DNA from: an uncultured Gammaproteobacteria bacterium
Lineage (GTDB): Bacteria; Patescibacteriota; Microgenomatia; CAZETR01
Assembly (NCBI GenBank): GCA_964514545.1
Contig: CAZETR010000033.1
Coordinates: 1,954-65,953, forward strand
Reading direction: 5' to 3'
DNA length: 64,000 nt
Position 1 is the first letter of the stretch, and every line of letters starts with the position of its first letter. Positions 10,082 through 58,311 of the stretch are shown here, in pieces. Under the pieces are notes generated by a model. The model saw nothing but the letters and a program-made list of their open reading frames with translations, was not told the origin of the DNA and ran no database searches. The position numbers and the translations under genes are program-made.

Positions 10082-10111
10082 GTTTGCCTTTTGAATATTG
10101 AGTTTTGAGTT

Positions 10112-10684
10112 TTAGAACGGGATATCCTCCGGCTCAACCCCTTGGCTATCTCCAACCGGAGCCACAACTTCCTCCTCGGCCTTTGCCTTCACAGCCCGAG
10201 ACTTCTTAGCTTTAACTACAGGTGCCGCTTCAACTTGGGCCTCTTCAACTGCAGGAGCTACTACTTCGGCAACTGATGGGGCAATCGGAGCCATTTGAGC
10301 CGATCCCCCTTCGTCCGCAACATACCCACCTCCCGCGTCTTCCGCCCGTTTGTTGTCCAGAATCACCATATCGTCTATCACGATCTCCGTTGCCTGGCGT
10401 TGAGCTCCATCCGTACCAGTCCAGCTTCTGGTCGAAAGTCTTCCCTCGACATATACCCTTCTTCCTTTAAACAGAAGCTGGGAACACAGCTCGGCTAGCT
10501 TATTCCAGGCAACGATCCGGTGAAATTCAGTTTCCTCCCTCTTTTCACCTGAATCAGTGGTCCATGACCTATTAGTAGCCAACCCCATAGTACAAACGGC
10601 CGTTCCCTGGGGCGTGTATCTAAGCTCGGGGTCCCGAGTCAGATTACCAATGAGCATTACTTTGTTTAGCGATCTACTTGACAT
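10112..10684 (-). CDS. ssb: single-stranded DNA-binding protein
   Basis: OB-fold N-terminus (NKVMLIGNLTRDPELRYTPQG), Gly/Ala-rich linker and C-terminal acidic tail ending DIPF. Confidence 0.9.
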   Translation of the reverse strand: MSSRSLNKVMLIGNLTRDPELRYTPQGTAVCTMGLATNRSWTTDSGEKREETEFHRIVAWNKLAELCSQLLFKGRRVYVEGRLSTRSWTGTDGAQRQATEIVIDDMVILDNKRAEDAGGGYVADEGGSAQMAPIAPSVAEVVAPAVEEAQVEAAPVVKAKKSRAVKAKAEEEVVAPVGDSQGVEPEDIPF

Positions 10685-19434: not shown

Positions 19435-19610
19435 CGGGGGTCTGCTCTGGAAACCAGGCAAACCCGCGATTTTAGAGATCCTTCTCCAATTGCCGGACAG
19501 GAACTACCCCGCGCGGCGGCAAATACGCCGCGAGGATGGCCCCGCCGACAGTGAAAATGAGCAGCGGTACCAAGATAGCTAAAACCACCAGATTCATGGG
19601 GTTTAGCCTA

Positions 19611-20726
19611 CTAGGGCGCGGGGGCTGTCGGGGTGACAGTAATGATAGCCCCAGGGAACATCACCTGAAGCACCGCCCGGACCACCTCCGGATCTTGGCC
19701 TGTAGTTGCTGAGAAAATCGTCCTCAAGACTTTCGCCTGGGACTCCGCATCGAGTTCGGCTTGCTGTCGACCGAACGCGGACTGCGTTGCCTCAATACTC
19801 TGACGCAGTTGCAGATTTTCTTGCTGCTGCTGGAGGCGCTCCCCTTCCAAACGCTCTTTCTCCACTTCGGACTGCGCCGCAGACTGACTATCACGGTAGG
19901 CCTGATCGCCAATTTCGACCCCGCGGATGAACACCGCGAGGATTTCAATCGGCTGACCGGCGACGGCCTTATCGATAATGCCTTTATAGATATCCGCCAG
20001 GCGAGCGCGCCCATCGGCAGACAAGATGTCATTCTGAGTCAATCCCGAACTCATCGCCCGGGCCGCACGCAGCGGCGATCCGATGAAAATCTGGGTTGCC
20101 GCGTCAGCAGAGGCCATCTCCCACAAGGCCTTGGCCGTATCATCGGTGTAAACGAATCTGAAAGACACGTCCACGTCCACGTTCGCACCGACCGGGTTGT
20201 CGTTAACTGACGCGCCCGTTAGCGTAGTTTCACACTTAAAACTGGCGCAAGCATCGGGATTGGTCAGCAGATCGGGGCGCAGAGTTCTGTAGCGGAGGAC
20301 GCCTGCAGGAAACAACAGTGTCTGTGAAACATCAATGTTGTACGTCCCCTGACTCAGAATCCGGTACTTCGTCTGGCTTTCGCGGTAAACCGCAACCAAG
20401 CCAGTCTGCACCACTGCCGCAGGAACCAGGAGAACCCAGGATTGGGCAATCTCCCGGTATTGGCCAGACGGAAGAATCTGGCCCTTGTAGAGGCCGAACT
20501 GTCCCTGCGGGACGTCTGCGATCGGCTCAACGATATCTTGGGACCCGACCGAATCGCCCGGCCGGAACAGTTGGGTGTAGGGATCCTGCTCGTTGCCTGG
20601 CGTGAACTGCTGATTGGGCGTGTAGCCGATCTCACCCGTTTGCACAACCTGGGGCCCGCCCGCACAGGACGACGCCAAAAGCGAGAGTAATACAAGCAGC
20701 GCAAACACGATCGATTTCCTGCTCAT
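19611..20726 (-). CDS. lipoprotein with SPFH/band-7 (prohibitin-like) domain
   Basis: Lipobox signal (LLASSCAGG), C-terminal SPFH-like region and coiled-coil (…EKERLEGERLQQQQENLQL…); high-GC island. Confidence 0.55.
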   Translation of the reverse strand: MSRKSIVFALLVLLSLLASSCAGGPQVVQTGEIGYTPNQQFTPGNEQDPYTQLFRPGDSVGSQDIVEPIADVPQGQFGLYKGQILPSGQYREIAQSWVLLVPAAVVQTGLVAVYRESQTKYRILSQGTYNIDVSQTLLFPAGVLRYRTLRPDLLTNPDACASFKCETTLTGASVNDNPVGANVDVDVSFRFVYTDDTAKALWEMASADAATQIFIGSPLRAARAMSSGLTQNDILSADGRARLADIYKGIIDKAVAGQPIEILAVFIRGVEIGDQAYRDSQSAAQSEVEKERLEGERLQQQQENLQLRQSIEATQSAFGRQQAELDAESQAKVLRTIFSATTGQDPEVVRAVLQVMFPGAIITVTPTAPAP

Positions 20727-21104
20727 TCCACATCCTCCATGATGTTGTTCAAGTAATTGCTGAAAAATCGATAGTCTTTCCGACGCAATCGCTCGATAAA
20801 TCTCCTCCGTTTCTTTGAAGAAATAGTAGTCAGCAATTCATTCAAGCTGCCATTCTAAGCACAAGTTATTTATGCCAAAATTGGCAGCCTGAAAGTATAA
20901 ATTGGATTTCAAAGTGCAACGATAGAGTTGACAGCACATCGACAAGATATGCGGTCAATATATCGGGCAATCCGGGTGCCAGGTCTCTACCAGCCGCGGT
21001 TTCCCGCAACTGTCAGAATACCCGACACCCGTTTTTTCAGTCAGAGGATTGCTCCCCCAGCCGGATTGCCGTGTTGTTACTTGAGATTCAAACTGGGAAC
21101 GATG

Positions 21105-22286
21105 TTACGCAGCGCGCATGATCTCGACAAGCTGGGCGGACAGCTTGTTCTCCGCCTCATGCAGTTCGCCACGACCGCGCTCGACTTCCTGACGCGCCTT
21201 TCGGTTGGCGGCGGCCGCATCGCCCAGCGCCTTCATGAGCGTCTCACCGCTCGTAACAATGGCATCAGCCATCCGATTGAGGGTCTCGACACGCAAGGCC
21301 ATCTGGCCCAGGAGCTGGGAACTTTGAGCGATCATCTGCTCATAGGCTTCCGCAGAGTCCACCGCTTGTTTGTTCATGAAGTCAATGCCCGTCTGGAGAG
21401 CGAGTTGGGCAATTTCGGCTTGCAGGGCATCGAGCTGCAGAACGACGTCGGTCTTCCACTGCGGAATGCCCATCTCCAAGAAATCGCCCAGGCCAAGCGC
21501 CACAATCGCATTGGCATTGCGCTGGCCGAGAAACCGACGCTCGTTCATGTTGCCCATGTGAATGTACGCCGGCAGCGACCCGAGCCGCTTGATGAGCAAC
21601 GGGCTGATGCCTTCGAGCCGTTCACGCTCGCCGCTGTCCACGGCCAACTTGAGGGCTTCGAGGCGATCGGTCAGCAGGTCCTTCAAGTCCTCCATGCCCG
21701 CACACAGATACAACAACTTATCCGTGCGCCCGTCGGCCTCTTCGGCCAACTGGCCATCGCGGACCACGGCCTCGATCACCAGATCGTACTGCCGCTGCAG
21801 AATGTCAATGTCCTTCTGCATCACCGCGAGGACGGTCTGAAACTGCTGGAGCGCTTCGCGGATCTCCTCGGAGATCGCGCGCACCCAGTTGACGACTTCG
21901 CGCGCCTTCGCCTTGCCCTGTGCGACTTTCTCGACAAAGCGCTGGTCAACTTTCGGCAACCTGCCGTTGACTTCGCGCATCTTGCGCGTGGCGCCCTGCA
22001 CGCCCTGGCTGACAACACCACCGTCGCGCATCTTCATGTTTTCGAGCATGGCATCCAAGCCGGGCGTCTGCTGAACATCGAAACCCTTGATCATCTCGAT
22101 GAAGAACGTGACACCGAAGTTGGAGTCCTCGAGCGCTTTCAACGCCCAGGCCTTGACTTCATCGCGCTTTCCTTGAGACAAGAGAGCACGCGCAGAGAAC
22201 TGAGGGCCGGGCGTAGTGACAGCGGCTTGGACGACTGGGACAAGTTGCTGTGAAGCAGCGGTCGGAAGGGGTAACGTGGTAGTCAT
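21105..22286 (-). CDS. TelA-like (toxic-anion-resistance / YaaN family) coiled-coil protein
   Basis: ~390 aa all-helical coiled-coil protein with TelA-like layout and C-terminal 'IPQWK…' region comparable to B. subtilis YaaN; neighbour is XpaC-like as in Bacillus xpaC-yaaN. Confidence 0.5.
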   Translation of the reverse strand: MTTTLPLPTAASQQLVPVVQAAVTTPGPQFSARALLSQGKRDEVKAWALKALEDSNFGVTFFIEMIKGFDVQQTPGLDAMLENMKMRDGGVVSQGVQGATRKMREVNGRLPKVDQRFVEKVAQGKAKAREVVNWVRAISEEIREALQQFQTVLAVMQKDIDILQRQYDLVIEAVVRDGQLAEEADGRTDKLLYLCAGMEDLKDLLTDRLEALKLAVDSGERERLEGISPLLIKRLGSLPAYIHMGNMNERRFLGQRNANAIVALGLGDFLEMGIPQWKTDVVLQLDALQAEIAQLALQTGIDFMNKQAVDSAEAYEQMIAQSSQLLGQMALRVETLNRMADAIVTSGETLMKALGDAAAANRKARQEVERGRGELHEAENKLSAQLVEIMRAA

Positions 22287-22345
22287 GCTTATTCTCCTTA
22301 TCTGACTAAGTCTGAACGTTGGAACGAGGAATATTGCTCGCTATT

Positions 22346-23458
22346 TTACTGAATAGCGGTCTTGATGGCCTCAAACACGTCGCGCTTGGGTTCGCCCACT
22401 GACTGGGGATTCGCCACGAGCCACGGAACGTCAGTGTCGCCCGGCTTGGCAGCGATGCCGCCGGCTGCAGTTCGCATACCGTACTGGCTCCAACCGAGAG
22501 CTTGCAACGTTTCATCCGTGCCAAAGATTTCGACGAGACGGTCCCCATTCTCTGTCAGACTGCCAAGCACGTGATCCGTGCTCACAGTCCACTCGGGGTA
22601 AATTCCGACGATCAGGTTGCCGTCGGACTCGCGCCGCGACTGTGGCAACTTGTTGCGCCAGCCTAGGTAGAGCGACTCAGAGCTAGCAGCCAACGGGATC
22701 GAGCCACTCTGGTAGACATAATCCTCGAACCACTCAGGACTAGACTCGGCCTGCCGAGGTTGCATAGCCCAGTTGGCTACCAGATTCGGAAGTACCGTAG
22801 GCAGGCCATTCAGATCGCACACGAGGCCGCCTTCGACACCGCCCGGCATCTGGTAATTGCAGAGCAAGAACAGGTGTTGTAAGCCACCGCTGCTTTTGGC
22901 CGGGTTAGTGTAACGGATATTCACTCGGCCAGGAATGGGCACGCCGATGTCCACCCACGCCTCCTGACTATTCATCGCCTCGATCACCGGCGCCATTTTC
23001 ATGTAGTAGGCGCCGTTCTTCCCATAGACGATGCCGCTGTCCAAAAGCGGTTGGAGAAACAGATCCCGACGGGTATAAAACAGGCCGTAGGTGCGAAAGA
23101 TTGTGTCGTGTTTTCGGACAAGCCCCGGTTTGGCGGTAGTGAAATCTTCGTACCCGCTTGCCGACCCCGGCCAGATACAATCAATGCCGGTCAGATCCTT
23201 GTCCTTCATCTCGAAGGTTCCGACGCTGATCGACTCCACATCGATATTGTAGTCAGCCAGTAGGTATTCCTTCACTTTCGCGTCGCGCAGGAAGACCTGG
23301 CCACCGAGGCAGGTAACCTTCATCGCCGGCCCGAGCGTGGGCGTCGGCGTCGGCAGGTTGGACTTTGCCTGACCCGCCAGCGAAAACGCGATGATAAGGA
23401 ACGTGGCAACGACGACAAGAACGCCAAGTCCGATAAGGAGACGTTTGTTCATGTTCAT
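22346..23458 (-). CDS. membrane-anchored periplasmic-binding-protein-like protein (paralogous to N-terminal half of the vWA protein)
   Basis: N-terminal TM then Pro/Thr linker; shared pattern with ORF 24131-25723 N-domain (K..L.D.GI…DV.W..S……RTY). Confidence 0.4.
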   Translation of the reverse strand: MNMNKRLLIGLGVLVVVATFLIIAFSLAGQAKSNLPTPTPTLGPAMKVTCLGGQVFLRDAKVKEYLLADYNIDVESISVGTFEMKDKDLTGIDCIWPGSASGYEDFTTAKPGLVRKHDTIFRTYGLFYTRRDLFLQPLLDSGIVYGKNGAYYMKMAPVIEAMNSQEAWVDIGVPIPGRVNIRYTNPAKSSGGLQHLFLLCNYQMPGGVEGGLVCDLNGLPTVLPNLVANWAMQPRQAESSPEWFEDYVYQSGSIPLAASSESLYLGWRNKLPQSRRESDGNLIVGIYPEWTVSTDHVLGSLTENGDRLVEIFGTDETLQALGWSQYGMRTAAGGIAAKPGDTDVPWLVANPQSVGEPKRDVFEAIKTAIQ

Positions 23459-24111
23459 GGCTTACTCCTCTCCGAGTCTTCGATGATGCTCCGAAGTAAT
23501 TCCGCAGCCCGCCCCGCCTTTGAGGTTGTGGTGGCAAGCTGTCGGAGCAAATTCAATTCGCTTTCGGCCGCGAGCAGCTTGCGCGCCCGGCCTTCGTCAA
23601 TACCGACTTCCAGAGCTTCAAGCGCTGTTTCCGTCTCCGGAATGTGCTGAGTTTCCAACTCCGTCATCAACGCGGCCATCTGGGAACGACTCAACGTTAC
23701 TTCACCGGTGAGCACACCCAGAACGGTCAGAAAACTATCTGAAAGCTTTTCCAGCCGCCGCACGTGAGTACCAATACCGGTGAGATCGCGCGTAACGAGC
23801 TTGGCAGCCATGCGAGCGATGTGAACCGCAATCGCCTGCAGCGCATCCTTCAATTTCGGTGAGCGCTGACTTTCAGCGATACGCTTGATTTGCGTTGCAA
23901 TCCGAGCCGTCCGCCCCAACGATTCCTCCAACGCGATGACGTCATCGGACTTGCGTAGAAACAGAAAGTACGTAACCAGCAGGCCAGCGGACGGGACAAG
24001 CCCAACCGCAACCCGAATGATTGGCGCACCGTATGGAAACAGAAATGCTGTGGCAACCATCGCGATGAGTGCTGCAGCCACAGCTAGAGAGTCAAGGATC
24101 TTTTGATTCAT
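23455..24111 (-). CDS. XpaC-like (5-bromo-4-chloroindolyl phosphate hydrolysis family) membrane protein
   Basis: Two N-terminal TM helices followed by helical cytoplasmic domain, ~210 aa, 4-nt overlap with downstream gene; classic partner of TelA/YaaN. Confidence 0.4.
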   Translation of the reverse strand: MNQKILDSLAVAAALIAMVATAFLFPYGAPIIRVAVGLVPSAGLLVTYFLFLRKSDDVIALEESLGRTARIATQIKRIAESQRSPKLKDALQAIAVHIARMAAKLVTRDLTGIGTHVRRLEKLSDSFLTVLGVLTGEVTLSRSQMAALMTELETQHIPETETALEALEVGIDEGRARKLLAAESELNLLRQLATTTSKAGRAAELLRSIIEDSERSKP

Positions 24112-24130
24112 GCAACACTCTCCTTGGCAA

Positions 24131-25723
24131 CTAATTGTTGCCCTTGAACAGGCGGAAGCACTTCACAAGCGCCTCCTGCCCGCCGCGGCCGTCACAGACC
24201 GCGCCGTGCGTGTAGTCGGCGATTTCTTTCATCGCCCCTTCGCTGGCAGAGCCGAAAAGGATCGTGTAGATGGGCACATTGCTTTGATCACCCTCGTAAG
24301 TCCTCTTCAGAGAGCCAAACGACGTGCCGACCGCGTTGTGCTCACCGTCGGTCAGAAGAATAACTGCCGGAAGCTGTCCAGGCTGAGCGCCCGTCGAAAC
24401 AATCTCCACCGCTCGTTGGGCGCATCCATAGATGTTGGTTCCGCCGGCAAGTTGCTGATTCTCAACGCTTGACAGGAGCGAGGCAAACTGCACAGAATCA
24501 TTGCCTTGAATTGAATACTCAGCCAGAACATTCTCGGCAAAAGCAAGCACGTAAGTGGTGTCGCCGCCTGACGCCTGCAAGAGGTACTGCGCCGCCAGGG
24601 TTTGATCCAGCAGGAGTTTCATCGCCGCCCTGAGTTGAGTCTCACCAGTCCCCTGCATGCTACCGGAGTAGTCAAGGCAAAAGACTGTGAACGACGGCTT
24701 GCGTAAAACAGTCTGGTACATATCGAGGGCGCGGGCAATTATCGTGTCTTTTGGCAATTCGATCAGCGCAAACTCGGTTTGCGCATCGATGCCCCACGCC
24801 GGATTGAAAACGCTCGGATCGGGATTCTCCACCCGCATACCGACGCGCCCTGTCCGGAACCCGAGAGACTGCAGTTTGGCACGCACGTCGTCACTGGTGA
24901 GGTATTCGGCCAGTTGTTTGAACTGGGCCTGCTTTTCCTCACTGGCGCCCGACACCCACCCAAGCTGGTAGTTCTGCATGCCGACAGCGTTGCTGACGTA
25001 AAAGACCGTCATCGGCGCCGCACCCTTGCCGACCAGTTCTTGATTGGTCGCGATGAGCATGCTTTCCGGCAGCACTATAGCGTTGTATTGCCCGCCACCG
25101 GAAGTGCGGTCCGCCACGAATGCAGCTTTGAGGTCGCTCGCGTTGCTGGCAGTCCGGCTCACCGCGGATAGAATCGTCCGCAGCGCGTCGACATCACCGC
25201 CCGTCGCCTGCCACAAGGCAAGGTAGAAATTGGCGCCGGCATCGTCCTGCGACGCACTCGGCATGGCCAGCTTGACCTTGCCCGCATTGATCGCAGCAAT
25301 GATGTCATTGACCGTGATGCCCGTCTGAGAATTCCAGCCAAGTTCACTGACCAGACCGGGATCCATGGCGAACACCACGTAGGTGCGCATCACCGAGGTC
25401 TTATCCCGGACAAGGCTTCCCGGCAACCAGATCGGTGAGGCCGCCCAGAAGACATCCACGTCACCGGGGTTCTGTGCCGTATACGCCAGGACCTTAAGTT
25501 TGACCTCAACAGAGCCCAGATAGCGTGTAGATACCGCAACTCCGGTCTTTTCAGTGAACGCTTTGAAAATGCCAGCGTCCTCGAGAAGCTTCACCTCACT
25601 CGCCGCATTGATGCGCAGAGAGCTCGGATCAGCCGGCGGAGTGACATTGGGCAACAAATCAGGCCCGCACGCCACGACAGCCAGATACAGTAGTACGACG
25701 GGAAACAGACATAACCGCTTCAT
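24131..25723 (-). CDS. lipoprotein with N-terminal PBP-like domain and C-terminal von Willebrand factor A (vWA) domain
   Basis: Lipobox (LAVVACG), MIDAS motif 'DYSGSM', second vWA motif '…LLTDGEHN…'. Confidence 0.7.
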   Translation of the reverse strand: MKRLCLFPVVLLYLAVVACGPDLLPNVTPPADPSSLRINAASEVKLLEDAGIFKAFTEKTGVAVSTRYLGSVEVKLKVLAYTAQNPGDVDVFWAASPIWLPGSLVRDKTSVMRTYVVFAMDPGLVSELGWNSQTGITVNDIIAAINAGKVKLAMPSASQDDAGANFYLALWQATGGDVDALRTILSAVSRTASNASDLKAAFVADRTSGGGQYNAIVLPESMLIATNQELVGKGAAPMTVFYVSNAVGMQNYQLGWVSGASEEKQAQFKQLAEYLTSDDVRAKLQSLGFRTGRVGMRVENPDPSVFNPAWGIDAQTEFALIELPKDTIIARALDMYQTVLRKPSFTVFCLDYSGSMQGTGETQLRAAMKLLLDQTLAAQYLLQASGGDTTYVLAFAENVLAEYSIQGNDSVQFASLLSSVENQQLAGGTNIYGCAQRAVEIVSTGAQPGQLPAVILLTDGEHNAVGTSFGSLKRTYEGDQSNVPIYTILFGSASEGAMKEIADYTHGAVCDGRGGQEALVKCFRLFKGNN

Positions 25724-25940
25724 GTAGCCTCCTTAACTATCTAATAGCTAATGGACCAGTAGGTAAGACTATTGCCAATATCTTCGGGAAATTTTCCCTC
25801 CTTTGAATCTCAAGTTGTTAAAGAGCTAATTAGGCTGTAACTCCACAAAAAAGCACCGCAAAAGTGGCGCTTGTTCTGTGAAGTTTACATCGGGCGCGAT
25901 TTTATCAGCTTCCAACCCCTAAGTCAAATCCTATGGGTTA

Positions 25941-26723
25941 CTATTTTCCTATCGCCATCCAGTTTACCTTGACCGAAGAGTTAACGCCAGCTTTATATAC
26001 GAATTGAGTATTAGATACGCTTCTAATTAAAACCGAAAATGGAGTTCCCGTCACCGAGATAGGAGTCGCAAGTACAACGGGAGCTGATGTGTATGGCTGG
26101 CTAAAGATCACCGTTCCCTTGCCAGTAGCGTCTGATGTAGAAACACCGAAAAGCAGAGTGTTACCTGATTCAACATTTAGGGCTAAGGGTCCTGTTGCTC
26201 CGGTTGCTCCAATAGATCCAGTAGCCCCTGTCGGCCCTACCGGACCTGCAACTCCAATCGGCCCGGTCACACCGGTTGTCCCCAACAGACCTGTCGCCCC
26301 GGTTGCTCCATCTGCCCCCGCCACTCCCGTCGGTCCCGTAGTTCCCATATATCCGGCAATTCCCGAGAATCCAGTATAACCGAACAGTCCTGTGAAGCCG
26401 GTATATCCAGCCTGCCCGGACGGTCCTGTCGGTCCGGTTGTTCCAGTGGGTCCAGTGCGACCCGCAAAACCGGAAGCACCCGTGTAGCCGGCCATCCCGG
26501 TTGGTCCGGTAGCGCCCGTTAACCCAGTCGGGCCGGTTTTACCCGCTGACCCAGACATACCCGTAAATCCAGCCGGACCGGACGGACCCGTAGGACCGGT
26601 CGCTCCAGTCGGACCTGTAATTCCTGAGGAACCAGTAAAACCAGCCTGCTGAGCCAAAGCAACTCTCGCAAAAACACCAATTCCCAACACTCCGAATACT
26701 AAAACTATAATTAAGCGCTTCAT
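25941..26723 (-). CDS. secreted collagen-like triple-helix repeat protein ((G-X-T)n, BclA-like) with ~80-aa C-terminal globular domain
   Basis: Signal peptide, ~50 uninterrupted Gly-X-Thr/Pro triplets ([19 protein letters not shown]…), non-repetitive C-terminus. Confidence 0.75.
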
Positions 26724-26868
26724 TTAAACCAATTCTTTCACTTGAATGTATTACGCTCTAAGTTACCTGTCAAGTAGTATCGACCTCCTGCCAAAGAGCA
26801 ACTATCTAAACTCCGTTCCGAGATTCTTAACCACATTGACCCCGTAATGAAGGTGCTCAAACTAACTT

Positions 26869-28293
26869 CTATTTTATCTTTACATTAGGTCCTTGATCCG
26901 AATCATGAACTTCGTATCCCAATTTCTCTATTTCACCTCTTAATTTATCCGCCTGGGCCCAATCCTTGGCTTGTCTCGCCTTCTCTCGCCTCGCAACCAA
27001 CACAGCTACTTCTTCTGAGATTTGGGATTTGGGATTTGGGATTTGGGATAAGCGCAAGCCCAGCACCTCATCCCAACTCATCAGCAGGTCCCATTTATCC
27101 CGATCCGGCAACATGCTCTTTCCCATCTCCCATACCACTGCCATCGCCTGGGGCATATTCAGGTCATCCTCGACGGCCAAACGAAACCTATTTGTAAATT
27201 TGTCAACCAGTTTGGTTTTTGAGTCTGACACTATTTTTCTTATATCCGCATTTTCCCTCCAACCCTGCACCAACGTGACTAGCCTAACTCGGGCATTTCT
27301 GGCCGCGTCCAGAGATTCAAACGTCATATTTAACTGATCCCGGTAATGAGCGGTCAGGTAAAGATAGCGCAAGTCCAACGGATCGTAGCCCCTTTGCACT
27401 AAATCTTGAAGGGTATAAAAGTTTGCGGTACTCTTGGCCATCTTTTTACCGTTCACTAGAATAAACGCTCCGTGAACCCAATACTTCACAAACGGCTTGC
27501 CTGTCGCGGCCTCCGACTGGGCAATCTCATTGGGATGGTGGGTAGAGCGCAAATCCTCTCCACCCACGTGCAGATCAAAAGACTCACCCAAATATTTCAT
27601 GCTCATAGCCGAGCACTCGATATGCCATCCCGGAAACCCCAACCCCCAGGGACTATCCCACTCCATTTGTCGCTTAGCCAGCCCCGAGCTTGCCGAAGGA
27701 CTAAACTTCCACAGCGCAAAATCCCGTGGGTTTCGCTTCTCGGGATTTACCTCGACCCTCGCGCCCTCCCGAATCTCATCCAGTGTCGAAAGCTCACCGT
27801 AATCCGGAAATTTGGAGGTGTCAAAGTACACCCCGTCGCGGGTTTTATAAGCATAGCCCTTTTCCTCGAGTTTCTTTACCAGCTCAATTTGCTCATCTGT
27901 GTGGTCCGTGGCCTTGGCAAACAAGCGCGGTTGAATGAGATTCAACTCCCCAAAATCCTTGAGAAACGCCTGAGTATAAAATTCCGCAATATCCCAAACC
28001 GTCTTCCCTTCTCTTTTAGCTGACTCCTCCATCCGGTCGTGGCCTGTATCAGAATCTCCCAAATTATCCCCAGTCAAGTGTCCCACGTCAGTCAGATTCA
28101 TAATATAGTCAACCTCGTATCCGAAAAACTTCAGAGCCCGAATCAGTAAATCCCCCAAAGTGTAGGTACGGAAATTGCCGATGTGGGCAAAGGAGTAAAC
28201 AGTCGGTCCGCAGGTGTATATGCCAACCTTGCCTGGATTAATCGGCGCAAATTCTTCCAGCTTTCGTGTCAAAGAGTTAAACAATCTCATCAC
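26869..28293 (-). CDS. cysS: cysteinyl-tRNA synthetase
   Basis: Class I motifs: 'CGPTVYSFAHIGN' (HIGH region), 'KMAKS' (KMSKS); contains in-frame heptamer-repeat insertion (…SQIPNPKSQIS…). Confidence 0.9.
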   Translation of the reverse strand: MMRLFNSLTRKLEEFAPINPGKVGIYTCGPTVYSFAHIGNFRTYTLGDLLIRALKFFGYEVDYIMNLTDVGHLTGDNLGDSDTGHDRMEESAKREGKTVWDIAEFYTQAFLKDFGELNLIQPRLFAKATDHTDEQIELVKKLEEKGYAYKTRDGVYFDTSKFPDYGELSTLDEIREGARVEVNPEKRNPRDFALWKFSPSASSGLAKRQMEWDSPWGLGFPGWHIECSAMSMKYLGESFDLHVGGEDLRSTHHPNEIAQSEAATGKPFVKYWVHGAFILVNGKKMAKSTANFYTLQDLVQRGYDPLDLRYLYLTAHYRDQLNMTFESLDAARNARVRLVTLVQGWRENADIRKIVSDSKTKLVDKFTNRFRLAVEDDLNMPQAMAVVWEMGKSMLPDRDKWDLLMSWDEVLGLRLSQIPNPKSQISEEVAVLVARREKARQAKDWAQADKLRGEIEKLGYEVHDSDQGPNVKIK

Positions 28294-29247: not shown

Positions 29248-29322
29248 ACTAGAAAAGTAAGTTAAGAGTCAAAATGAAAAGTCAAAATTTTTTATATTTG
29301 ATCTTTAATCTTTAATCTTTCT

Positions 29323-30021
29323 TTAGTACTCCATTCTCCCCTCCATGGCCCGAGAGAGAGTAACGTCGTCGGCATACTCGATATCAGCCCCCACCGGAAG
29401 TCCACGGGCAAGCCGAGTCACCCGCGGGAGATTTAAGATTTGCTTGCCCTGAACAATGTCGGAGGGAGATTTAAGATTTGAGATTTGACCGCTGATATAC
29501 ATGGCTGTTGCTTCCCCTTCCATGTTTGAATTTAACGCCAATATTACCTCACTTATTGGGATTTGGGAATTGGGATTTGCTTGCCCCTCGAAGTCCTGAG
29601 CTTCCGATGGACGAAGTAGGGGGATTTTGAGCCGAACTATTAGTTCGGCGATGTGTATCTCATCCGGTCCGATGTTATTCAAGGGTGAAATCGATCCATG
29701 CAGAACATGATACACGCCCTTAAACACCCCGGACCGCTCCACCGCAAATAAGTCCAAGGGTTGCTCCACAACACAAATTACCCCTTTCTCGCGACTTGGA
29801 TCAGAACAAATCGGACAGGGATCGTTTTCAGAGACGTTGAGGCAAATGGAGCATAAAACCGTATGCTTCTTTAAATTTCCCAGAGCTTCGGCAAATTGGT
29901 CCAGGTGATCCTGGGGAACATGAAGTAAGTAGTAAGTTAACCTCTGCGCCGACTTGGGCCCAATCCCCGGCAATCTCTCAAAGGCCTCAATAAGTCTCGC
30001 AAGGGGTCTGGCAATCTGCAT
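29323..30021 (-). CDS. recR: recombination protein RecR
   Basis: HhH N-terminus, C4 zinc finger (CSICLN…CPIC), Toprim region; two repeat-derived insertions. Confidence 0.85.
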   Translation of the reverse strand: MQIARPLARLIEAFERLPGIGPKSAQRLTYYLLHVPQDHLDQFAEALGNLKKHTVLCSICLNVSENDPCPICSDPSREKGVICVVEQPLDLFAVERSGVFKGVYHVLHGSISPLNNIGPDEIHIAELIVRLKIPLLRPSEAQDFEGQANPNSQIPISEVILALNSNMEGEATAMYISGQISNLKSPSDIVQGKQILNLPRVTRLARGLPVGADIEYADDVTLSRAMEGRMEY

Positions 30022-30096
30022 CGCTCTTTATATTACCAAAAAATCCGTTCCCGTAGATCACCAATTCAAATTTTAAATTGTAAATTGTAAATTCGG

Positions 30097-32935: not shown

Positions 32936-33386
32936 CCAGCACTTTCTTTACCGCAATTGAGATTCTTCCCCCGTCAGCGCTAGCTCCGGCCTTCTCCCGC
33001 ACCAAGCCAATCACCCGACCCATATCCCGCATCCCGACCGCGCCAGTCGCACCAATTGCCTCCCTAACCCAAATTTCCAGCTGGTCATCCGACACCTGTT
33101 GAGGCAAATAGCCGGATAGAATGTCCATCTCAGCCTTTTCTTTATCCGCCAAATCAGGCCTGGACTCACGATAGGCATCGATACTTTCCTTCCTCTGTTT
33201 GACCCCTTTGCCAAGTACGGCAATTACCTCCGCCTCACCAAGCTCCCTTTGCAACTCAATCCGGCGATAATTCGCAGCCGAAAGTAACATCCGTAAAACG
33301 GAAGTCCTCAGTTCCTCCCGCGCCAGCTGCGCCGCCCTCAAATCTGCCTGAATCTTCTCAAGGAGCACTGATTTGATATTTGACAT
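32928..33386 (-). CDS. GatB/YqeY-domain protein
   Basis: Family-typical size and conserved rpsU-yqeY arrangement. Confidence 0.65.
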   Translation of the reverse strand: MSNIKSVLLEKIQADLRAAQLAREELRTSVLRMLLSAANYRRIELQRELGEAEVIAVLGKGVKQRKESIDAYRESRPDLADKEKAEMDILSGYLPQQVSDDQLEIWVREAIGATGAVGMRDMGRVIGLVREKAGASADGGRISIAVKKVLGV

Positions 33387-33424
33387 TTTTGAAATTTGTG
33401 ACTTGGGATTTGGGGCTTGTCGAC

Positions 33425-33607
33425 CTACCCTCTTCTTTTCATTCCCCGCTGCATCCGTTTTTTCTCGTAACGAACACGGGAGGGCTTTTGGTAAAACTCG
33501 CGCTTTTTCAGCTCATTGATAATATCATCAGCCAGCACCTTCTTGCGAAATGCTGCTATAAGCTTATCATCGCTATCTCCTGGTTTTTTTTTGACTACTG
33601 TAGCCAT
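33425..33607 (-). CDS. rpsU: 30S ribosomal protein S21
   Basis: 60-aa basic protein, …YEKKRMQRGMKRR C-terminus. Confidence 0.85.
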   Translation of the reverse strand: MATVVKKKPGDSDDKLIAAFRKKVLADDIINELKKREFYQKPSRVRYEKKRMQRGMKRRG

Positions 33608-37612: not shown

Positions 37613-38731
37613 TTAATACAATTTTGCTCCTGTAAAAAGACGCAGTAAATCACGAGCTGTAATTAAAATTATCAATGCTATTAAAACTACCATTCCGACA
37701 GTGTGGAGCCATCTTTCAAACCGCGGCACGACCCGCCTTCCAAAAATGGCCTCAATAATAATGAATAGCAATCGGCCTCCATCCAAAGCCGGAATCGGCA
37801 TAATGTTTAAAACCGCCAGGTTAACTGACAATATCCCCACCAATTGCAGTAAATTTAGAAATCCGGTTTTGGCAACTTCACGAGTCACCTCAAAAATTCC
37901 CACCGGGCCGGAAATATCCTGCGGCACCCGGCCAAAGCGGACCAACTCAAATATCAGTTTGCCAAACCCCGACAAAACCATCCTCGTCCAACCGAACGCC
38001 TCGCCTACTCCATAGTAACCCGCACGGAAGGGCATCTGCCACCAGGGAAAAAACTTGGGAACAACTTGTGAGATCGCCACTCCGAGCGGCCCCTCCCCCT
38101 GCGGAGGACTGGTCCTGGGAGTCATCCTGATGGCAATCTTTTCTCCACTTTTTCTCTCTATCTCTATCTCGATCTCACGGCCGTTTGCCTGCTTTGTCGC
38201 CTGAATAAATTCATCGCTCCTACTAATCAGCTTGTCGAAAACCTCCGAGCCCGAAATCACAAACTTGAAATTCGTAACCTTGTCCCCTTCTTTGAGTCCA
38301 GCTGTCTCCGCAGGAGAATTCTTTGCAATCCCAACCACAAAGACATTGTCTGTCTTTGTCGGAATTCCAAGTTTGGCATAGAGAAAAGTAAACACCCCAA
38401 TTGCCAAGAGAAAATTCATAGCAACACCAGCCACAATTACCGAAGCCCGGGTTAACTTGGATTTAGCAAAAAATGCCCTATCCTTCAAATCTTGATTAAT
38501 GTCACCGTCCTGGTCATCTTCTCCCAACAGCTTCACAAACCCACCAATCGGTAACGCGTTTATGGAAAAAACTGTCTCGCCAATCTTTCGTCCCCAAATC
38601 CGCGGAGGCAAACCAAATCCAAATTCCTCAACACCGATTCCAGCTCTTTTGGCCATTAAAAAATGTCCCAGCTCGTGTATTAATACCAAAACCGAGAGCA
38701 CGGCTAAAAAGATGAGAATTGAAAATATCAT
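37613..38731 (-). CDS. rseP: RIP site-2 metalloprotease RseP (M50) with PDZ domain
   Basis: HEXXH 'HELGHFLMA', PDZ, C-terminal LDG motif. Confidence 0.8.
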   Translation of the reverse strand: MIFSILIFLAVLSVLVLIHELGHFLMAKRAGIGVEEFGFGLPPRIWGRKIGETVFSINALPIGGFVKLLGEDDQDGDINQDLKDRAFFAKSKLTRASVIVAGVAMNFLLAIGVFTFLYAKLGIPTKTDNVFVVGIAKNSPAETAGLKEGDKVTNFKFVISGSEVFDKLISRSDEFIQATKQANGREIEIEIERKSGEKIAIRMTPRTSPPQGEGPLGVAISQVVPKFFPWWQMPFRAGYYGVGEAFGWTRMVLSGFGKLIFELVRFGRVPQDISGPVGIFEVTREVAKTGFLNLLQLVGILSVNLAVLNIMPIPALDGGRLLFIIIEAIFGRRVVPRFERWLHTVGMVVLIALIILITARDLLRLFTGAKLY

Positions 38732-38772
38732 TTATCTGTATCCGAGGTTTTTGTGATTTGAGATTTGGCTAA

Positions 38773-42842: not shown

Positions 42843-43681
42843 TTCAGCACCTCCACCAAATTCTCAAACAAACTTACAACTGTTACCGGACCGACACCCC
42901 CGGGTACCGGGGTAATGAAACTGGCCTTCGGGGAAACAGAAGCAAAGTCAAAGTCGCCCTGCGGGGAACCCACGTCAATAGCAATTACGCCCCGCTCGCC
43001 TCGCCGAAGCCCGTCGGGCGAAGGAGGGTCTTTTACCATATCGCGGGTTATAAGACCCGGCCGACCTGTGGCGCTAATTACCACGTCGGCGGTCTTTAAT
43101 TTCTCGATGTCGAAATCCTCTCTGTCCATGCCGAAAACTATCATCTTCCCTCTTTTCTCTATCTCTATCTCAATTCTTCTCCCAACCGTTCCCTTATTCC
43201 CAACAACCGCCAGGCTGACAGGGACTGTCCTTGTCAATCGCATCGCCTCATCGAGAATCGCGATAACCGCCCGAACAGTAGCCGGTAAAAGGTAACTATC
43301 GGGGCGAAGACCATCGATATCCTTACGCGAATCAATCAATTCCACAATTTCCGATTCCAAATCACGAGTATCGGGAAGTAACGGAAGCTGAATCATGATA
43401 CCGTCAACCGTAAAACCAACATTTAACCGCAGGATTAAATCTCTTAAACCGGCCGGGTTGAACGAATTGGAAATAGGGGTGGAGACAAAATCTATTCCCA
43501 TCTCGCCCGCTTTCTTTTCCTTAATCCGAGTGTATATCCGGCTGGGCTCATGATTGGGATTATAGATACTCGTTAGTTTGGGTCTGCGCCCAAGTTTTTC
43601 GGTCAGCTTAACTACTCTATCTCTAACCTCTATCTCTATCTTATTCGCAAACTCTTTACCGTTAAAAACTATGGGGGCCAT
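42839..43681 (-). CDS. folD: bifunctional methylenetetrahydrofolate dehydrogenase/cyclohydrolase
   Basis: C-terminal 'TPVPGGVGPVTV' and overall FolD layout. Confidence 0.85.
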   Translation of the reverse strand: MAPIVFNGKEFANKIEIEVRDRVVKLTEKLGRRPKLTSIYNPNHEPSRIYTRIKEKKAGEMGIDFVSTPISNSFNPAGLRDLILRLNVGFTVDGIMIQLPLLPDTRDLESEIVELIDSRKDIDGLRPDSYLLPATVRAVIAILDEAMRLTRTVPVSLAVVGNKGTVGRRIEIEIEKRGKMIVFGMDREDFDIEKLKTADVVISATGRPGLITRDMVKDPPSPDGLRRGERGVIAIDVGSPQGDFDFASVSPKASFITPVPGGVGPVTVVSLFENLVEVLK

Positions 43682-52163: not shown

Positions 52164-54322
52164 GTTTGTTTCGGTTTAGCCGCGCCCTCCGTAGCCCTTG
52201 GCGTTGGGCGGGTCCAACTGGCAAAATCGCACTTGGGGTAGCTGGAGCAGCCGTAAAACGACTTGCCTGTGCGGGTTTTCTTAATGATTATATCCCCTCC
52301 GTCCTTGGGGCACTTCACTCCCTCGACGACCTGCACATAATTGGCCTTGTATTTACACTCCGGAAAACGGGAGCAGGAGAGGAATTTGCCAAACTTGCCC
52401 AACCTGATAACGATATCCCCGACCTTGCAATCCGGGCACTTCTCCCCTGTGGCTTCAGTTTCTACCGCAACTCTCTCGGCCACCTCCCCGACCGCCGTCA
52501 ATTTCTCGGAAAACGGAATATAAAACTCCTTTATTACCTTCTCCCAATCTAAGTTCCCGTTGGCAATTGAATCCAGCTCGTCCTCCATCTTGGCCGTAAA
52601 CTGATAATCAACAATATTGGGGAAATACTCGACTAAAAAGTCATTCACCGCAAATCCCAGCACTGTAGGTTTAAGTCTCCTGGCCTCCCGTTCCACATAT
52701 TGCCTGTCGACAATGGTCGTAATGGTCGGGGCGTATGTAGAAGGCCTACCGATCCCCAGCTCCTCGAGAGCTTTGATCAGTGAAGCTTCATTAAACCGTG
52801 CCGGCGGTTGGGTAAACTTCTGTTCGCTTTTAATCTCGCTTTTATTCAGCTCCTCGCCCTGGATTAGTTCAGGCAACCGTTGGTCGTCTACTGTGTTTTC
52901 GTCAATACCGTTTTGATCATTTAAGTTTCGGACTTTATTGGGATTTGAGATTTGGAATTTGGGATTTGTTTGATACAGTCGGCTCCACCCGGCAAACTTC
53001 ATTACCTCTCCCTTGGTTTCGAGGATATACACATGTTTCGCCCCCTCGGCACTTACCCGAACCGTTGTCTGATCAACAACGGCCTCCGCCATTTGGGTTG
53101 CCATAAATCTATTCCAAATTAGTTCGTAGAGCTTCCGGCCTTCATGCTCAACGTTTATTCTGGCAGGATCTGTGGGCCTAATAGCCTCATGCGCCTCCTG
53201 GGCAACTTTGGATTTAGTCTTGTAAAATCTGGGCGCGGAAAGAGCGTATTCCGGACCAAACTCCTTTTCAATTACAACCTTTGCGGCCGTAACCGCCTCC
53301 ATCGCCATATTCGTCGAATCCGTGCGATGATAGGTAATCAGTCCCTCTTCATATAAAGACTGGGCTATCTGCATTATCCTTTTAGCCGTCATTCCCATTT
53401 TGTTTGAAGCAATTTGCTGGAGGGTTGATGTCGTAAACGGCGGCGGCGGAGTTCGCCTGAGCTCCTTTTTCTCAATCGCTACAACCTGATACCCCGCCTC
53501 TTCCAACTCAGATACCGCATCCTGAGCCTCTGCCCCGTTTGTAATTTTTATTTTCGCCCCGTCTCTTTCAACCAAGGTAACCCAAAACATTTCGAGATTT
53601 GACATTTGAGATTTGTCATTTGTCATTCGCGCAAGCAACGCTTGAATCGCCCAGTATTCCTCAGGTACAAACTTCTCTATCTCCCTCTCCTTCTCCACAA
53701 TCAACCGCACTGCGACCGACTGCACCCGACCCGCGGAAAGTCCCCGCCTGACCTTGCGCCACAGAAGAGGCGAAAGCTTATAGCCCACCAGCCGATCCAA
53801 AGCTCTTCTGGCCTGCTGAGCGTTAACCAGGGGCATATCGATAGTTCGCGGATGTTTAAAAGACTCCAAAATTGCGTGCTCGGTAATCTCATGAAACACA
53901 ATCCTACTAAATAAGGATTGAGGATTGAGAATTGAGAATTGACGATGAGGTTTGAGATTTGAAGTTAGAGGACCGACATCTGACTTCGACAATCTACCCT
54001 CAGGATCAGTCTTCTTCCTTCGATCTTCGGTCTTCAGTAATTGCGAAATGTGCCATGCAATGGCCTCTCCCTCCCGATCAGGGTCCGTCGCCAAAAATAT
54101 TGCAGCTGATTCTTTGGCAATTTTCTTTAATTCATTAACCCTCTCATCTTTTTTCTCAATTACCACATAGTCCATCTTTACCCCCCCGTTCACACTTACC
54201 CCAATCTTCTTCTTCGGCAAATCCCGAACATGTCCCATGGTCGCCTCCACCCGGAAAGTTGCATCCAGGTACTTTGACAGCGTGCGAGCTTTAGTTGGAC
54301 TTTCAACAATAACTAAATTCAT
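52160..54322 (-). CDS. topA: DNA topoisomerase I with C-terminal zinc ribbons
   Basis: Toprim N-terminus (MNLVIVESPTKA), active-site region 'GLITYHRTDS', C4 zinc ribbons; contains several repeat-derived in-frame insertions. Confidence 0.9.
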   Translation of the reverse strand: MNLVIVESPTKARTLSKYLDATFRVEATMGHVRDLPKKKIGVSVNGGVKMDYVVIEKKDERVNELKKIAKESAAIFLATDPDREGEAIAWHISQLLKTEDRRKKTDPEGRLSKSDVGPLTSNLKPHRQFSILNPQSLFSRIVFHEITEHAILESFKHPRTIDMPLVNAQQARRALDRLVGYKLSPLLWRKVRRGLSAGRVQSVAVRLIVEKEREIEKFVPEEYWAIQALLARMTNDKSQMSNLEMFWVTLVERDGAKIKITNGAEAQDAVSELEEAGYQVVAIEKKELRRTPPPPFTTSTLQQIASNKMGMTAKRIMQIAQSLYEEGLITYHRTDSTNMAMEAVTAAKVVIEKEFGPEYALSAPRFYKTKSKVAQEAHEAIRPTDPARINVEHEGRKLYELIWNRFMATQMAEAVVDQTTVRVSAEGAKHVYILETKGEVMKFAGWSRLYQTNPKFQISNPNKVRNLNDQNGIDENTVDDQRLPELIQGEELNKSEIKSEQKFTQPPARFNEASLIKALEELGIGRPSTYAPTITTIVDRQYVEREARRLKPTVLGFAVNDFLVEYFPNIVDYQFTAKMEDELDSIANGNLDWEKVIKEFYIPFSEKLTAVGEVAERVAVETEATGEKCPDCKVGDIVIRLGKFGKFLSCSRFPECKYKANYVQVVEGVKCPKDGGDIIIKKTRTGKSFYGCSSYPKCDFASWTRPTPRATEGAAKPKQT

Positions 54323-57480: not shown

Positions 57481-58245
57481 CTAAATGATAATAAAAACTG
57501 GCTGAGGAAATGCCAAATCACTCGCTAACTTAACATCTCCCTCCTGATAAATCCCGCCGGGTCCCTGAAATACCCGACCGAGATTTCCAATCAAAAGTCC
57601 GGACGGCTCGCCGGATATTCCGGCTGAAACAATCAAATCACCTTCCGCTATTTTGTCTTTGCGCAAAACCTTAATAAGACGAGCTTGTCCCGCAAGTCCG
57701 GTTAAAAGCCCGTCCGCCCTCCGCCCTCCGCTTATTGCACCACGAACCAGCACCGCCAGACGAAATTGAGCACTTGTCGGCATAGCAACCCGCGCCGAAT
57801 GGTCAAAAACCCCTACTACCCTCCCCACGATCAGATTTTCCCGAACTACGACCTGGCCGACGGCCACTTGATCATTGGAACCTTTGTCGATCCAGGCCAC
57901 GCCGGTCGCTTCCCCCACAATCTGCGCCAGCACCTTTTGCCGGGATACGGTCTCCGTAATTTTTTGCTGGGCCAAAAGCAACTTGTTGTCTTCCGTCAGC
58001 TTTCCGATCTGCGCAATTTGCGCCCTAGCTCGTGCCAAATCCAAACGTAATTGCGAAATCTCCGCATCGCGTCTCGTCAGCTGGACTCTTGCTCCCCAAA
58101 TTATTTTTCTGACTGGCAATGTCAAACTATCGGCTATGTTAGTAAAAATCTCCAAATTTGGCCCGGCGAGCACAAGCACAAGACTCACAACCGCAAGTAT
58201 TCCCAAAAGCTTGTAATCTTTCATTCGACTTGGATCGTCGTTCAT
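57481..58245 (-). CDS. mreC: rod shape-determining protein MreC
   Basis: N-terminal TM, coiled coil, β-rich C-domain; mreBCD synteny. Confidence 0.7.
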   Translation of the reverse strand: MNDDPSRMKDYKLLGILAVVSLVLVLAGPNLEIFTNIADSLTLPVRKIIWGARVQLTRRDAEISQLRLDLARARAQIAQIGKLTEDNKLLLAQQKITETVSRQKVLAQIVGEATGVAWIDKGSNDQVAVGQVVVRENLIVGRVVGVFDHSARVAMPTSAQFRLAVLVRGAISGGRRADGLLTGLAGQARLIKVLRKDKIAEGDLIVSAGISGEPSGLLIGNLGRVFQGPGGIYQEGDVKLASDLAFPQPVFIII

Positions 58246-58311
58246 TTGGCTAATTGGTCAAACTGGCAGGATTAGACTGATTTGGCATTTGAAATTATCT
58301 GATTGGTTGAT

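Follow-up and report, generated by a model that had tools for sequence, protein, structure and literature searches.

The stretch of DNA analyzed here (the window) comprises 64,000 nt, positions 1,954 to 65,953 of the forward strand of contig CAZETR010000033.1 in assembly GCA_964514545.1. It carries short tandem arrays of heptanucleotides inside cysS, recR, topA, hisS, and a Wzy-like gene, and in several spacers between genes (Table 1). We detected arrays with Tandem Repeats Finder (TRF) and a lag-7 run analysis, and the identities of the array-bearing genes were confirmed by Pfam. The best homologs of RecR, TopA, and CysS, at 55 to 67% identity, belong to metagenome-assembled genomes (MAGs) of Microgenomates-group Patescibacteria, in the Candidate Phyla Radiation (CPR), namely, Gottesman-, Shapiro-, Levy-, Woese-, and Amesbacteria. 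For RecR, the top identity to a GTDB representative genome is 60%, in Gottesman-, Shapiro-, and Levybacteria-type MAGs. Judged by these proteins, the window appears to derive from a Microgenomates-group CPR bacterium. An earlier reading of this DNA, made from the letters alone (the original prediction), had listed arrays in cysS, recR, topA, and the Wzy-like gene and proposed that a microsatellite-like element had spread at the DNA level and was tolerated in protein loops. The listed arrays are present at, or within a few bases of, the coordinates it gave, in frame inside intact open reading frames (ORFs). The list was incomplete: it missed the hisS array, three spacer arrays of the same unit family (33370-33412, 38755-38767, and 58279-58291), and three arrays of other units (29286-29320, 30068-30093, and 10089-10113).

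Table 1. Heptanucleotide arrays of the window, with positions counted from the first nucleotide of the window and units written on the strand given
Feature	Position	Strand	Units and encoded peptide or context
cysS array	27019-27049	-	(CCAAATC)4.4, perfect, 31 nt; linker before the CysS_C domain
recR site a	29556-29590	-	CAAATCC CAATTCC CAAATCC CAAT; encodes ANPNSQIPI
recR site b	29464-29490	-	CAAATCT CAAATCT TAAATCT CCC; encodes QISNLKS
recR site c	29426-29442	-	CAAATCTTAAATCTCCC; second copy of the site b 17-mer, 38 nt apart
topA site c	52937-52973	-	CAAATCC CAAATTC CAAATCT CAAATCC CAAT; encodes NPKFQISNPN
topA site b	53587-53628	-	GACAAAT GACAAAT CTCAAAT GTCAAAT CTCGAAAT; encodes NDKSQMSNLE
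topA site a	53914-53965	-	~7.4 degenerate units; encodes TSNLKPHRQFSILNPQS
Wzy_C/TPR gene array	62263-62289	+	CCAAATC TCAAATC TCAAATC TCTATCC; encodes PNLKSQISI; sense in a plus-strand gene
hisS array	1425-1442	+	(ATCTCAA)2.6; encodes SQISNL; sense in a plus-strand gene
Intergenic array	~33370-33412	-	Imperfect CAAATCY type, ~6 units
Spacer array	38755-38767	-	CAAATCTCAAATC; sense; 41-nt spacer upstream of M50 peptidase gene
Spacer array	58279-58291	-	CAAATGCCAAATC; sense; spacer upstream of mreC
Intergenic array	29286-29320	-	(AAAGATT)5; 3 nt past the recR stop codon
Intergenic array	30068-30093	-	(ACAATTT)3.7; 47 nt upstream of recR
Edge array	10089-10113	-	(CTCAAAA)3.6; overlaps the stop codon of ORF 10112-10684

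Perfect period-7 arrays of 15 nt or longer number 15 in the window; in 50 dinucleotide-preserving shuffles, the expected number is 1.06 and the maximum 3. With at most one mismatch, CAAATCYCAAATC is present 22 times, compared to 0.56 expected. Chance is excluded as the source of these arrays. Periods 5 and 8 to 15 are at or near the shuffle expectation. CAAATC[C/T] is the sense-strand core of all ten coding arrays of the window, and 21 of the 22 CAAATCYCAAATC matches are sense to the local gene, those in both plus-strand genes included; the sole antisense match is a 13-nt relic with one mismatch at 62065-62077. The claim that the same motif read on the other strand yields different peptides therefore failed: in the nine arrays listed at the outset and in hisS, the C/A-rich strand is the sense strand, and only two peptide families are encoded. 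Three units make 21 nt, or seven codons, and all three reading frames give one cyclic 7-aa peptide, so that CCAAATC encodes PNPKSQI and CAAATCT encodes QISNLKS (cyclically, SNLKSQI). These two peptides recur in different proteins because 7 and 3 share no factor. In the 473-aa cysteinyl-tRNA synthetase, the array, which reads (GATTTGG)4.4 on the plus strand, encodes SQIPNPKSQIS within ...LSQIPNPKSQISEE... on the coding strand. The array at 33370-33412, whose imperfect repeats were also traced over 33387-33425, fills the spacer after a small ORF that resembles ribosomal protein S21 (judged by eye) and extends into the next, YqeY-like ORF, covering its start codon region and first residues, MSNIKS. 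The (AAAGATT)5 unit downstream of recR is unlike those of the coding arrays and would encode a stop codon.

We compared the window with 80 RecR-centered loci from GTDB species representatives (the related loci; 1.2 Mb), with genes called by a simple ORF-based procedure (90% coding). Perfect arrays of periods 5, 6, 7, 8, and 9 number 309, 216, 173, 22, and 18, respectively, and TRF reports 64, 320, and 127 arrays of periods 6, 7, and 8. Copies are arranged head to tail in units of 7 nt, and arrays are more numerous and longer than composition predicts, with period 7 standing out from periods 6, 8, and 9. Density ranges from 0 to 15 arrays per 10 kb among the related loci. The units are diverse, with 94 canonical heptamers among 188 perfect arrays; the typical unit is an A-tract plus T plus one or two G/C (AAAACTC, AAATCTC, AAAATTG, or AAATCCC), and the units of the lineage form a graded series in which neighbors differ by one base. 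Of 195 period-7 arrays, 93 lie inside genes, 32 at gene edges, and 70 in intergenic DNA. Intergenic and edge positions thus account for 102 arrays, although noncoding DNA makes up 10% of the loci, and array density is several-fold higher there. An exact scan of metagenome contigs for (CAAATCT)3 returned at least 120 stretches; among the matches listed, 69 of 119 internal arrays of (CAAATCT)>=3 fall within sense ORFs that span 150 codons or more, and no array falls within an antisense ORF. The excess of period 7 is shared by the related loci; the arrays probably characterize the entire Microgenomates-group CPR lineage and not just this genome. The phenomenon belongs to the DNA level, as had been proposed, because synonymous positions are exactly periodic, noncoding arrays are of the same kind, and units at one site differ by lineage. 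The further idea that one element had spread found no evidence in its favor, given the absence of common flanks, the diversity of intergenic units, and the sharing of the RecR and TopA sites with many Microgenomates.

Orientation separates the coding arrays from the intergenic ones. In the related loci, 80 coding arrays have the A-rich strand as sense and 7 have the T-rich one, a ratio that becomes 55:2 once orthologous recR and cysS sites are removed, whereas arrays between codirectional genes are divided 28:21. This difference shows that the bias is imposed by translation and not by strand-asymmetric mutation; mutational strand asymmetry as its source is ruled out by the intergenic ratio. 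The peptides read in the sense direction are rich in K, S, Q, and N, with a mean Kyte-Doolittle hydropathy of -1.08. The antisense reading is rich in L and F, with a hydropathy of +0.89, and 69 of its 651 codons are stops; (AGATTTG)n, for instance, includes TGA, and (GGGATTT)n would be translated as GIWDLGF. Because an array read in antisense would bring in stops or a hydrophobic peptide, translation acts as a filter on a process at the DNA level. Where a coding array is built from a unit that contains a stop codon, a single substitution removes the stop, as in AGTTAA to AGTGAA in loci L031 and L043. The encoded peptide is under selection, at least of a negative kind that keeps it stop free and hydrophilic.

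The stop-corrected array AAGTTAAAAGTTAAAAGTGAAAAGTTAAAAGTT, which encodes KLKVKSEKLKV, is identical at L031 4794-4830 and L043 2273-2305. Its host ORFs differ in length (315 and 308 aa) and in the position of the array (residues 243 and 39). Its presence in two ORFs could reflect convergence or ectopic copying.

We examined how the arrays sit in their proteins by aligning these with orthologs and solved structures. In TopA, residues 100 to 138 (39 aa), residues 457 to 480, and part of residues 233 to 247 have no counterpart in solved TopA structures; the first of these segments confirms the insertion of ~35 aa after EGEAIAWHI that had been noted before. Site a is the 3' half of this 39-aa insertion, which follows the Toprim domain, and is composed of units such as TCAAATC TCAAACC ... 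CAATTCT CAATTCT CAATCCT CAATCCT. The 5' half (53966-54025, TopA residues 100 to 119) has a weak lag-7 identity of 0.40 and may be a decayed array; the nonrepetitive insert halves of RecR (residues 132 to 146) and TopA (residues 463 to 480) gave no lag-7 signal. Site c opens an insertion of 14 to 24 aa (residues ~452 to 480), and site b occupies a beta-hairpin turn (residues 233 to 247), where the gain in length is 8 aa relative to the solved chain 6ozw and 2 aa relative to Microgenomates orthologs. All three sites vary in length among 119 Microgenomates orthologs, some of which carry other heptamer-encoded peptides (NSKFKIQNSKFS in P0147, NSKFEIRNSK in P0144, NHKSQITN in P0136, and NFQFSIFN in P0159). 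An AlphaFold2 (AF2) model of TopA built from 55 sequences has a mean predicted local distance difference test score (pLDDT) of 83 and a predicted template modeling score (pTM) of 0.78. Residues 109 to 134 and 454 to 479 have pLDDT values of <50 and no secondary structure, and residues 233 to 247 form a hairpin turn; the two long TopA inserts are thus predicted to be disordered.

RecR has ~20 and ~14 residues more than PDB 3VDP, both between a helix and the next strand of the Toprim domain, and site a sits within the insertion of ~16 to 20 aa in this helix-to-strand loop. The loop assignment rests on the alignment to 3VDP; an AF2 model of RecR (19 sequences) had a mean pLDDT of 59.5 and was not used. 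CysS and HisS show no net gain in length, and the linker that holds the array is equal or longer in orthologs and solved structures. The term "inserted" in the original prediction is therefore correct for TopA and RecR, where alignments show net insertions, and wrong for CysS and HisS, where the array occupies an existing variable linker. Elsewhere in the lineage, CysS orthologs carry heptamer arrays of 31 or 32 nt. One, (AAATCCC)4.4 at L036 9327-9357, occupies the same linker as in the window, one lies near that linker (L066 13808-13838), and two lie at a second site around residues 345 to 350 (L028 16321-16352 and L069 15043-15073), so that CysS has at least two recurrent array sites. The arrays lie in variable linkers and structural gaps, and proteins therefore tolerate these repeats in loops, as the ortholog and structure alignments and the AF2 model of TopA together bear out. 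The ortholog alignment that had been suggested as a check thus placed the segments in variable linkers, but it also showed that several are old or recurrent rather than specific to this genome. Heptamer peptides occur at the RecR and TopA sites of many Microgenomates, which makes these sites, by alignment, probably old and orthologous or recurrent, not genome-specific insertions.

In the second RecR linker (site b), most Microgenomates have a 9-aa segment of the pattern [LF]KxQxSx[LF]K. In several lineages, the underlying DNA is a perfect array of 30 to 32 nt whose unit depends on the lineage: AACTCAA in L073, L067, and L070, AGTTCAA in L029, and AAATCTC in L072. In other lineages, the array is partly or fully decayed, with peptide pattern and length unchanged. 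Because perfect arrays have a different unit in each lineage, the comparison indicates that the linker is probably one old array, orthologous across Microgenomates and evolving in concert. It would have stayed at one site since before the Microgenomates orders diverged.

A single near-identical strain provided a further comparison. Two contigs (L201 and L202) assembled from run ERR3478687 in Logan, an assembly collection from public SRA reads, align with 10.4 kb of the window. Positions 1 to 18 of L202 are an Illumina adapter (CGACGCTCTTCCGATCT) at the start of the Logan contig and were left out. Three of the eight real substitutions fall inside arrays, which cover ~3% of the aligned sequence (binomial P of ~0.001 by our own calculation). 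Two of these substitutions form a pair. The two recR 17-mers, CAAATCT[T/C]AAATCTCCC, have T in both window copies and C in both copies of the 99.7% identical L201 (that is, CAAATCTTAAATCTCCC in the window and CAAATCTCAAATCTCCC in the strain), the variable positions being 29473 in site b and 29435 in site c. The third is at position 30073, in the array upstream of recR, which is perfect in the strain. The joint change of the 17-mers fits templated copying between misaligned units and not a simple gain or loss of units. A protein search with CysS returned neither the window protein nor a strain variant, so the perfect 31-nt cysS array, the one most prone to slippage, has no strain counterpart in this comparison. 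Dislocation, or misalignment, mutagenesis is established in vitro and may account for the joint change of the recR 17-mers.

Array length has a sharp mode at 30 to 33 nt (4.4 to 4.6 units), and 86 of the 195 arrays in the related loci fall in the 4.5-unit bin. Among coding arrays, 38 of 93 measure 31 to 33 nt; among noncoding arrays, 40 of 102 measure 30 to 32 nt; long arrays, of up to 102 nt, are confined to DNA outside genes. Two window arrays, those of cysS and topA site c, are at the mode with 31 nt by TRF, and those of recR site a (~30 nt) and the Wzy-like gene (~29 nt), counted from the sequence, are approximately at it. A preferred array size is not specific to period 7: the related loci also hold 42 octamer arrays, independent of the heptamers, with length peaks at 30 to 31 and 34 to 35 nt (~3.8 to 4.4 copies), such as those at L030 12250-12284, L066 10390-10420, and L008 14484-14513. 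The mode could possibly be caused by recombination that caps growth once misaligned homology exceeds ~25 nt or by a functional element with four sites. A preference for ~30 to 35 nt might, as a speculative idea to which we give a low probability, reflect a so far undescribed, size-calibrated process, either a mutational mechanism or a widespread nucleic acid element with four sites. In the mutational version, repeats may stop growing at a homology threshold for recombination, or a polymerase or primase may copy a 7- to 8-nt template about four times over. If such a process did exist in CPR bacteria, it would be a standing generator of new protein linkers that are homogenized in place over very long times.

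Taken together, the arrays are probably heptanucleotide simple-sequence repeats (SSRs) of Microgenomates-group CPR bacteria that originate at the DNA level and pass through a translational filter. They would arise, and stay homogeneous, by misalignment of repeat units during replication or repair, through slipped-strand mispairing or templated "dislocation" copying between units. A coding array would persist only if its net length is a multiple of 3, if its sense strand, free of stop codons, specifies a peptide that is hydrophilic (rich in K, S, Q, N, and P), and if it lies in a permissive linker or loop. The survivors would lengthen or recode flexible linkers of TopA, RecR, CysS, HisS, and the Wzy-like protein with no known benefit, and some, such as the RecR linker array, would persist at one site and evolve in concert.

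Several observations weigh against this explanation. At eight arrays, the window and the near-identical strain show no difference in copy number, and because of this, slippage as such is inferred and not observed. No RecR ortholog shows the 7-aa-shorter state expected of a cycle of contraction and reexpansion. Simple slippage does not predict a mode of 30 to 33 nt in both coding and noncoding DNA. The ten coding and three intergenic arrays of the window belong to one unit family (CAAATCY) in one orientation, which is narrower than a stop-codon filter alone would give. All related loci are centered on recR, so some array counts are not independent, for which we corrected in part, at the recR and cysS sites only.

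The length mode is also the starting point of a different explanation, in which the arrays are functional nucleic acid elements of fixed size, with about four sites of 7 to 8 nt in 30 to 35 nt. Such an element might be read by a protein that takes one heptamer per subunit (CspB-like, S1, or other), act as unstructured C/A-rich mRNA, or form a G-quadruplex or other non-B DNA; on this view, the copies in genes would either be by-products that the cell tolerates or have a regulatory role in translation or transcription. The sharp peak shared by coding and noncoding arrays, the octamer peaks at 30 to 31 and 34 to 35 nt, and the constant length at which the RecR array is perfectly periodic in several lineages fit this idea, as do the four-unit preference of heptamers in Xanthomonas and Nostoc (PMC4692102) and in Geobacter metallireducens (PMC2700814), the many intergenic arrays that fill short spacers right after stop codons or before start codons, and the (GGGATTT)4 of the cysS plus strand, which matches the G3N4 quadruplex motif. 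However, no single sequence-specific binder fits 94 canonical heptamers in 188 perfect arrays, intergenic arrays have no clear orientation preference (28:21), the window has no Rfam match, and arrays in many orthologs have decayed by point mutation while the gene was retained. We therefore regard a fixed-size element as unlikely. The G-quadruplex as a general explanation is ruled out, since cysS is the one window array with four G3 tracts.

Selection could instead act on the peptides themselves (PNPKSQI, SNLKSQI, or LKTQNSK) as functional modules, such as flexible spacers, helix extensions with a heptad hydrophobic position, or short linear motifs, with DNA periodicity a secondary effect. Two peptide families do recur in five window proteins, distant orthologs of RecR, TopA, and CysS have related peptides at the corresponding sites, coding arrays are strongly sense oriented, and the RecR linker keeps [LF]KxQxSx[LF]K and its length where DNA periodicity has decayed. 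Yet selection on peptides does not produce exact 7-nt periodicity at synonymous positions or perfect units specific to a lineage, and arrays of the same kind are several-fold denser in noncoding DNA. A heptad or coiled coil at the protein level would leave 21-nt periodicity without exact 7-nt periodicity, and the DNA here is 7-nt periodic, synonymous positions included. With disorder predicted at the TopA inserts, solved orthologs that lack these TopA and RecR segments, and sequences that diverge as widely at one TopA site as NSKFKIQNSKFS, NSKFEIRNSK, and NFKLKIENLK, peptide modules seem quite improbable as the primary cause. Still less probable is a mobile or actively inserted element that spreads by transposition, targeted integration, or ectopic copying. 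It would account for one CAAATCY family making up all ten coding and three intergenic arrays in 64 kb, for the shared ending ...CAAATCCCAATAA(A)GT of recR site a and topA site c, for the 17-mer CAAATCTTAAATCTCCC that occurs twice in recR, and for the identical AAGTTAAAAGTTAAAAGTGAAAAGTTAAAAGTT arrays at different positions in two ORFs of two genomes. Apart from the two similar endings, however, the nine window arrays have no conserved flanks, terminal inverted repeats, or target-site duplications; no transposase or integrase is linked to the arrays in a search that was not exhaustive; the units of the lineage grade into one another by single bases; and the RecR array, shared by orthology between deeply diverged lineages, is no recent insertion. 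We rejected a mobile element because the arrays share no flanks. That the arrays are artefacts of assembly or sequencing is the least credible proposal of all. All sequences come from MAGs or metagenome contigs, the ~31- to 33-nt mode is close to common k-mer sizes, and one Logan contig begins with adapter sequence; against this, the array-bearing ORFs keep their frame intact, many studies and assemblers yielded loci with arrays (k141 assemblies and a closed chromosome among them), and the four-unit preference appears in published analyses of Xanthomonas and Geobacter genomes as well. We rejected an artefact because the independent assembly of ERR3478687 reproduces the arrays with identical copy numbers.

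Other features of the window include further repeats. Perfect period-6 arrays are likewise enriched (15 against 3.6 expected), and a tandem hexamer, TCTCTA/CTCTAT, occurs five times (1804-1826, 38155-38176, 43156-43171, 43615-43641, and 62313-62349). A G-rich heptamer array in mreC at 57708-57731, with (GGAGGGC)3.3 as its sense reading, is unrelated in sequence to the CAAATCY family. The minus strand carries nearly all long ORFs, and the GC skew of the plus strand is strongly negative over the whole window (-0.04 to -0.30). Scans of the 64 kb for tRNA genes and Rfam families found no tRNA gene and no family match. A block at 19600-26750, directly adjoining cysS, has a G+C content of 0.55 to 0.57, compared to 0.44 to 0.50 elsewhere. 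It includes four ORFs without a Pfam match, a protein with solute-binding and von Willebrand A domains (24131-25723), and a protein with collagen triple-helix repeats (25941-26723) whose DNA is periodic at 9 nt (26190-26615). This block may be an acquired island.

These results extend to the CPR an excess of heptanucleotide repeats that has been little studied in bacteria, and they offer a natural experiment that separates mutation from selection, with both orientations present in noncoding DNA and almost only stop-free, hydrophilic readings in genes. Through a 7-nt repeat, loops of essential enzymes (TopA, RecR, and aminoacyl-tRNA synthetases) can gain modules of 7 aa, and an array can persist and be homogenized at one site across orders. 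For comparative work, low-complexity inserts of this kind make CPR marker proteins look more divergent than they are, create alignment gaps, and may pass wrongly for lineage-specific "domains." Three points may be new: the translational filter in quantified form, a coding array with deep orthology and concerted evolution, and the ~31-nt mode in both coding and noncoding DNA. In the literature we searched, no paper links CPR, Patescibacteria, or Microgenomates to heptanucleotide or simple-sequence repeats.

Among the closest known systems are the prokaryotic heptanucleotide SSRs of Mrázek, Guo and Shah (2007), whose excess in bacteria, together with the idea that 7 nt corresponds to a polymerase footprint, is cited in PMC4679880 and PMC4692102. 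As portrayed in these two papers, period 7 is overrepresented relative to neighboring periods and enriched in noncoding DNA, its distribution is scattered and lineage specific, and polymerase slippage is the proposed origin, all of which resembles the arrays described here. The present case differs in its setting, CPR/Microgenomates, and in that about half of the arrays lie in frame in conserved housekeeping genes, some of them orthologous across orders. The quadruplex-forming heptamers GGGNATC and GGGGA(T/C)T of Xanthomonas and Nostoc (Rehm et al. 2015, PMC4692102) share the unit length, a size of about four units (a preference reported for GGGAATC in Xanthomonas), and a position near stop or start codons between codirectional genes, and the cysS plus strand fits their G3N4 pattern. 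Those repeats are G rich, of one sequence type, and preferentially intergenic, with coding sequence underrepresented (PMC4692102). The units here, in contrast, are mostly A/T rich and diverse, four or more G3 tracts are missing from most copies, and about half of the arrays are coding, although coding DNA still has several-fold fewer of them per base than noncoding DNA.

In Geobacter metallireducens, four tandem GGGACCG heptamers occur in 49 copies between and within genes and are annotated as putative regulatory elements (Aklujkar et al. 2009, PMC2700814). The four-heptamer structure is common to both cases, but the Geobacter elements have a single GC-rich consensus and were read as regulatory RNA, with no analysis of peptides or orientation. 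The TAACTGA direct repeats of marine Beggiatoaceae, cyanobacteria, and Bacteroidetes (MacGregor 2015, PMC4679880) are likewise tandem heptamers, mostly located just upstream of starts; inside ORFs, their orientation is set by stop codons and they encode a 7-aa repeat, LSVISYQ. That unit is fixed, has stops in all forward frames, and occurs mostly in hypothetical proteins, and horizontal transfer was proposed (PMC4679880), whereas here we find many units, housekeeping genes, and vertical persistence. Contingency loci, such as the phase-variable HMW1A of Haemophilus influenzae, which is controlled by heptanucleotide repeats, also depend on short tandem repeats prone to slippage, but they switch surface or virulence genes by changes of frame or promoter spacing and are highly polymorphic in copy number (PMC8262952). 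The arrays of the window, by comparison, are short (~4.5 units), often imperfect, and equal in copy number in two near-identical genomes. Their hosts are mostly the essential cysS, hisS, and topA, or recR, with the Wzy_C/O-antigen-ligase-like gene as the sole exception, and a change of one unit in a coding array would shift the frame. The arrays are a new example of the known bacterial heptanucleotide-repeat excess, not a new kind of element. With the ~4.5-unit mode now seen in a fourth unrelated group, the questions "why heptamers, and why four?" can be tested with comparative data.

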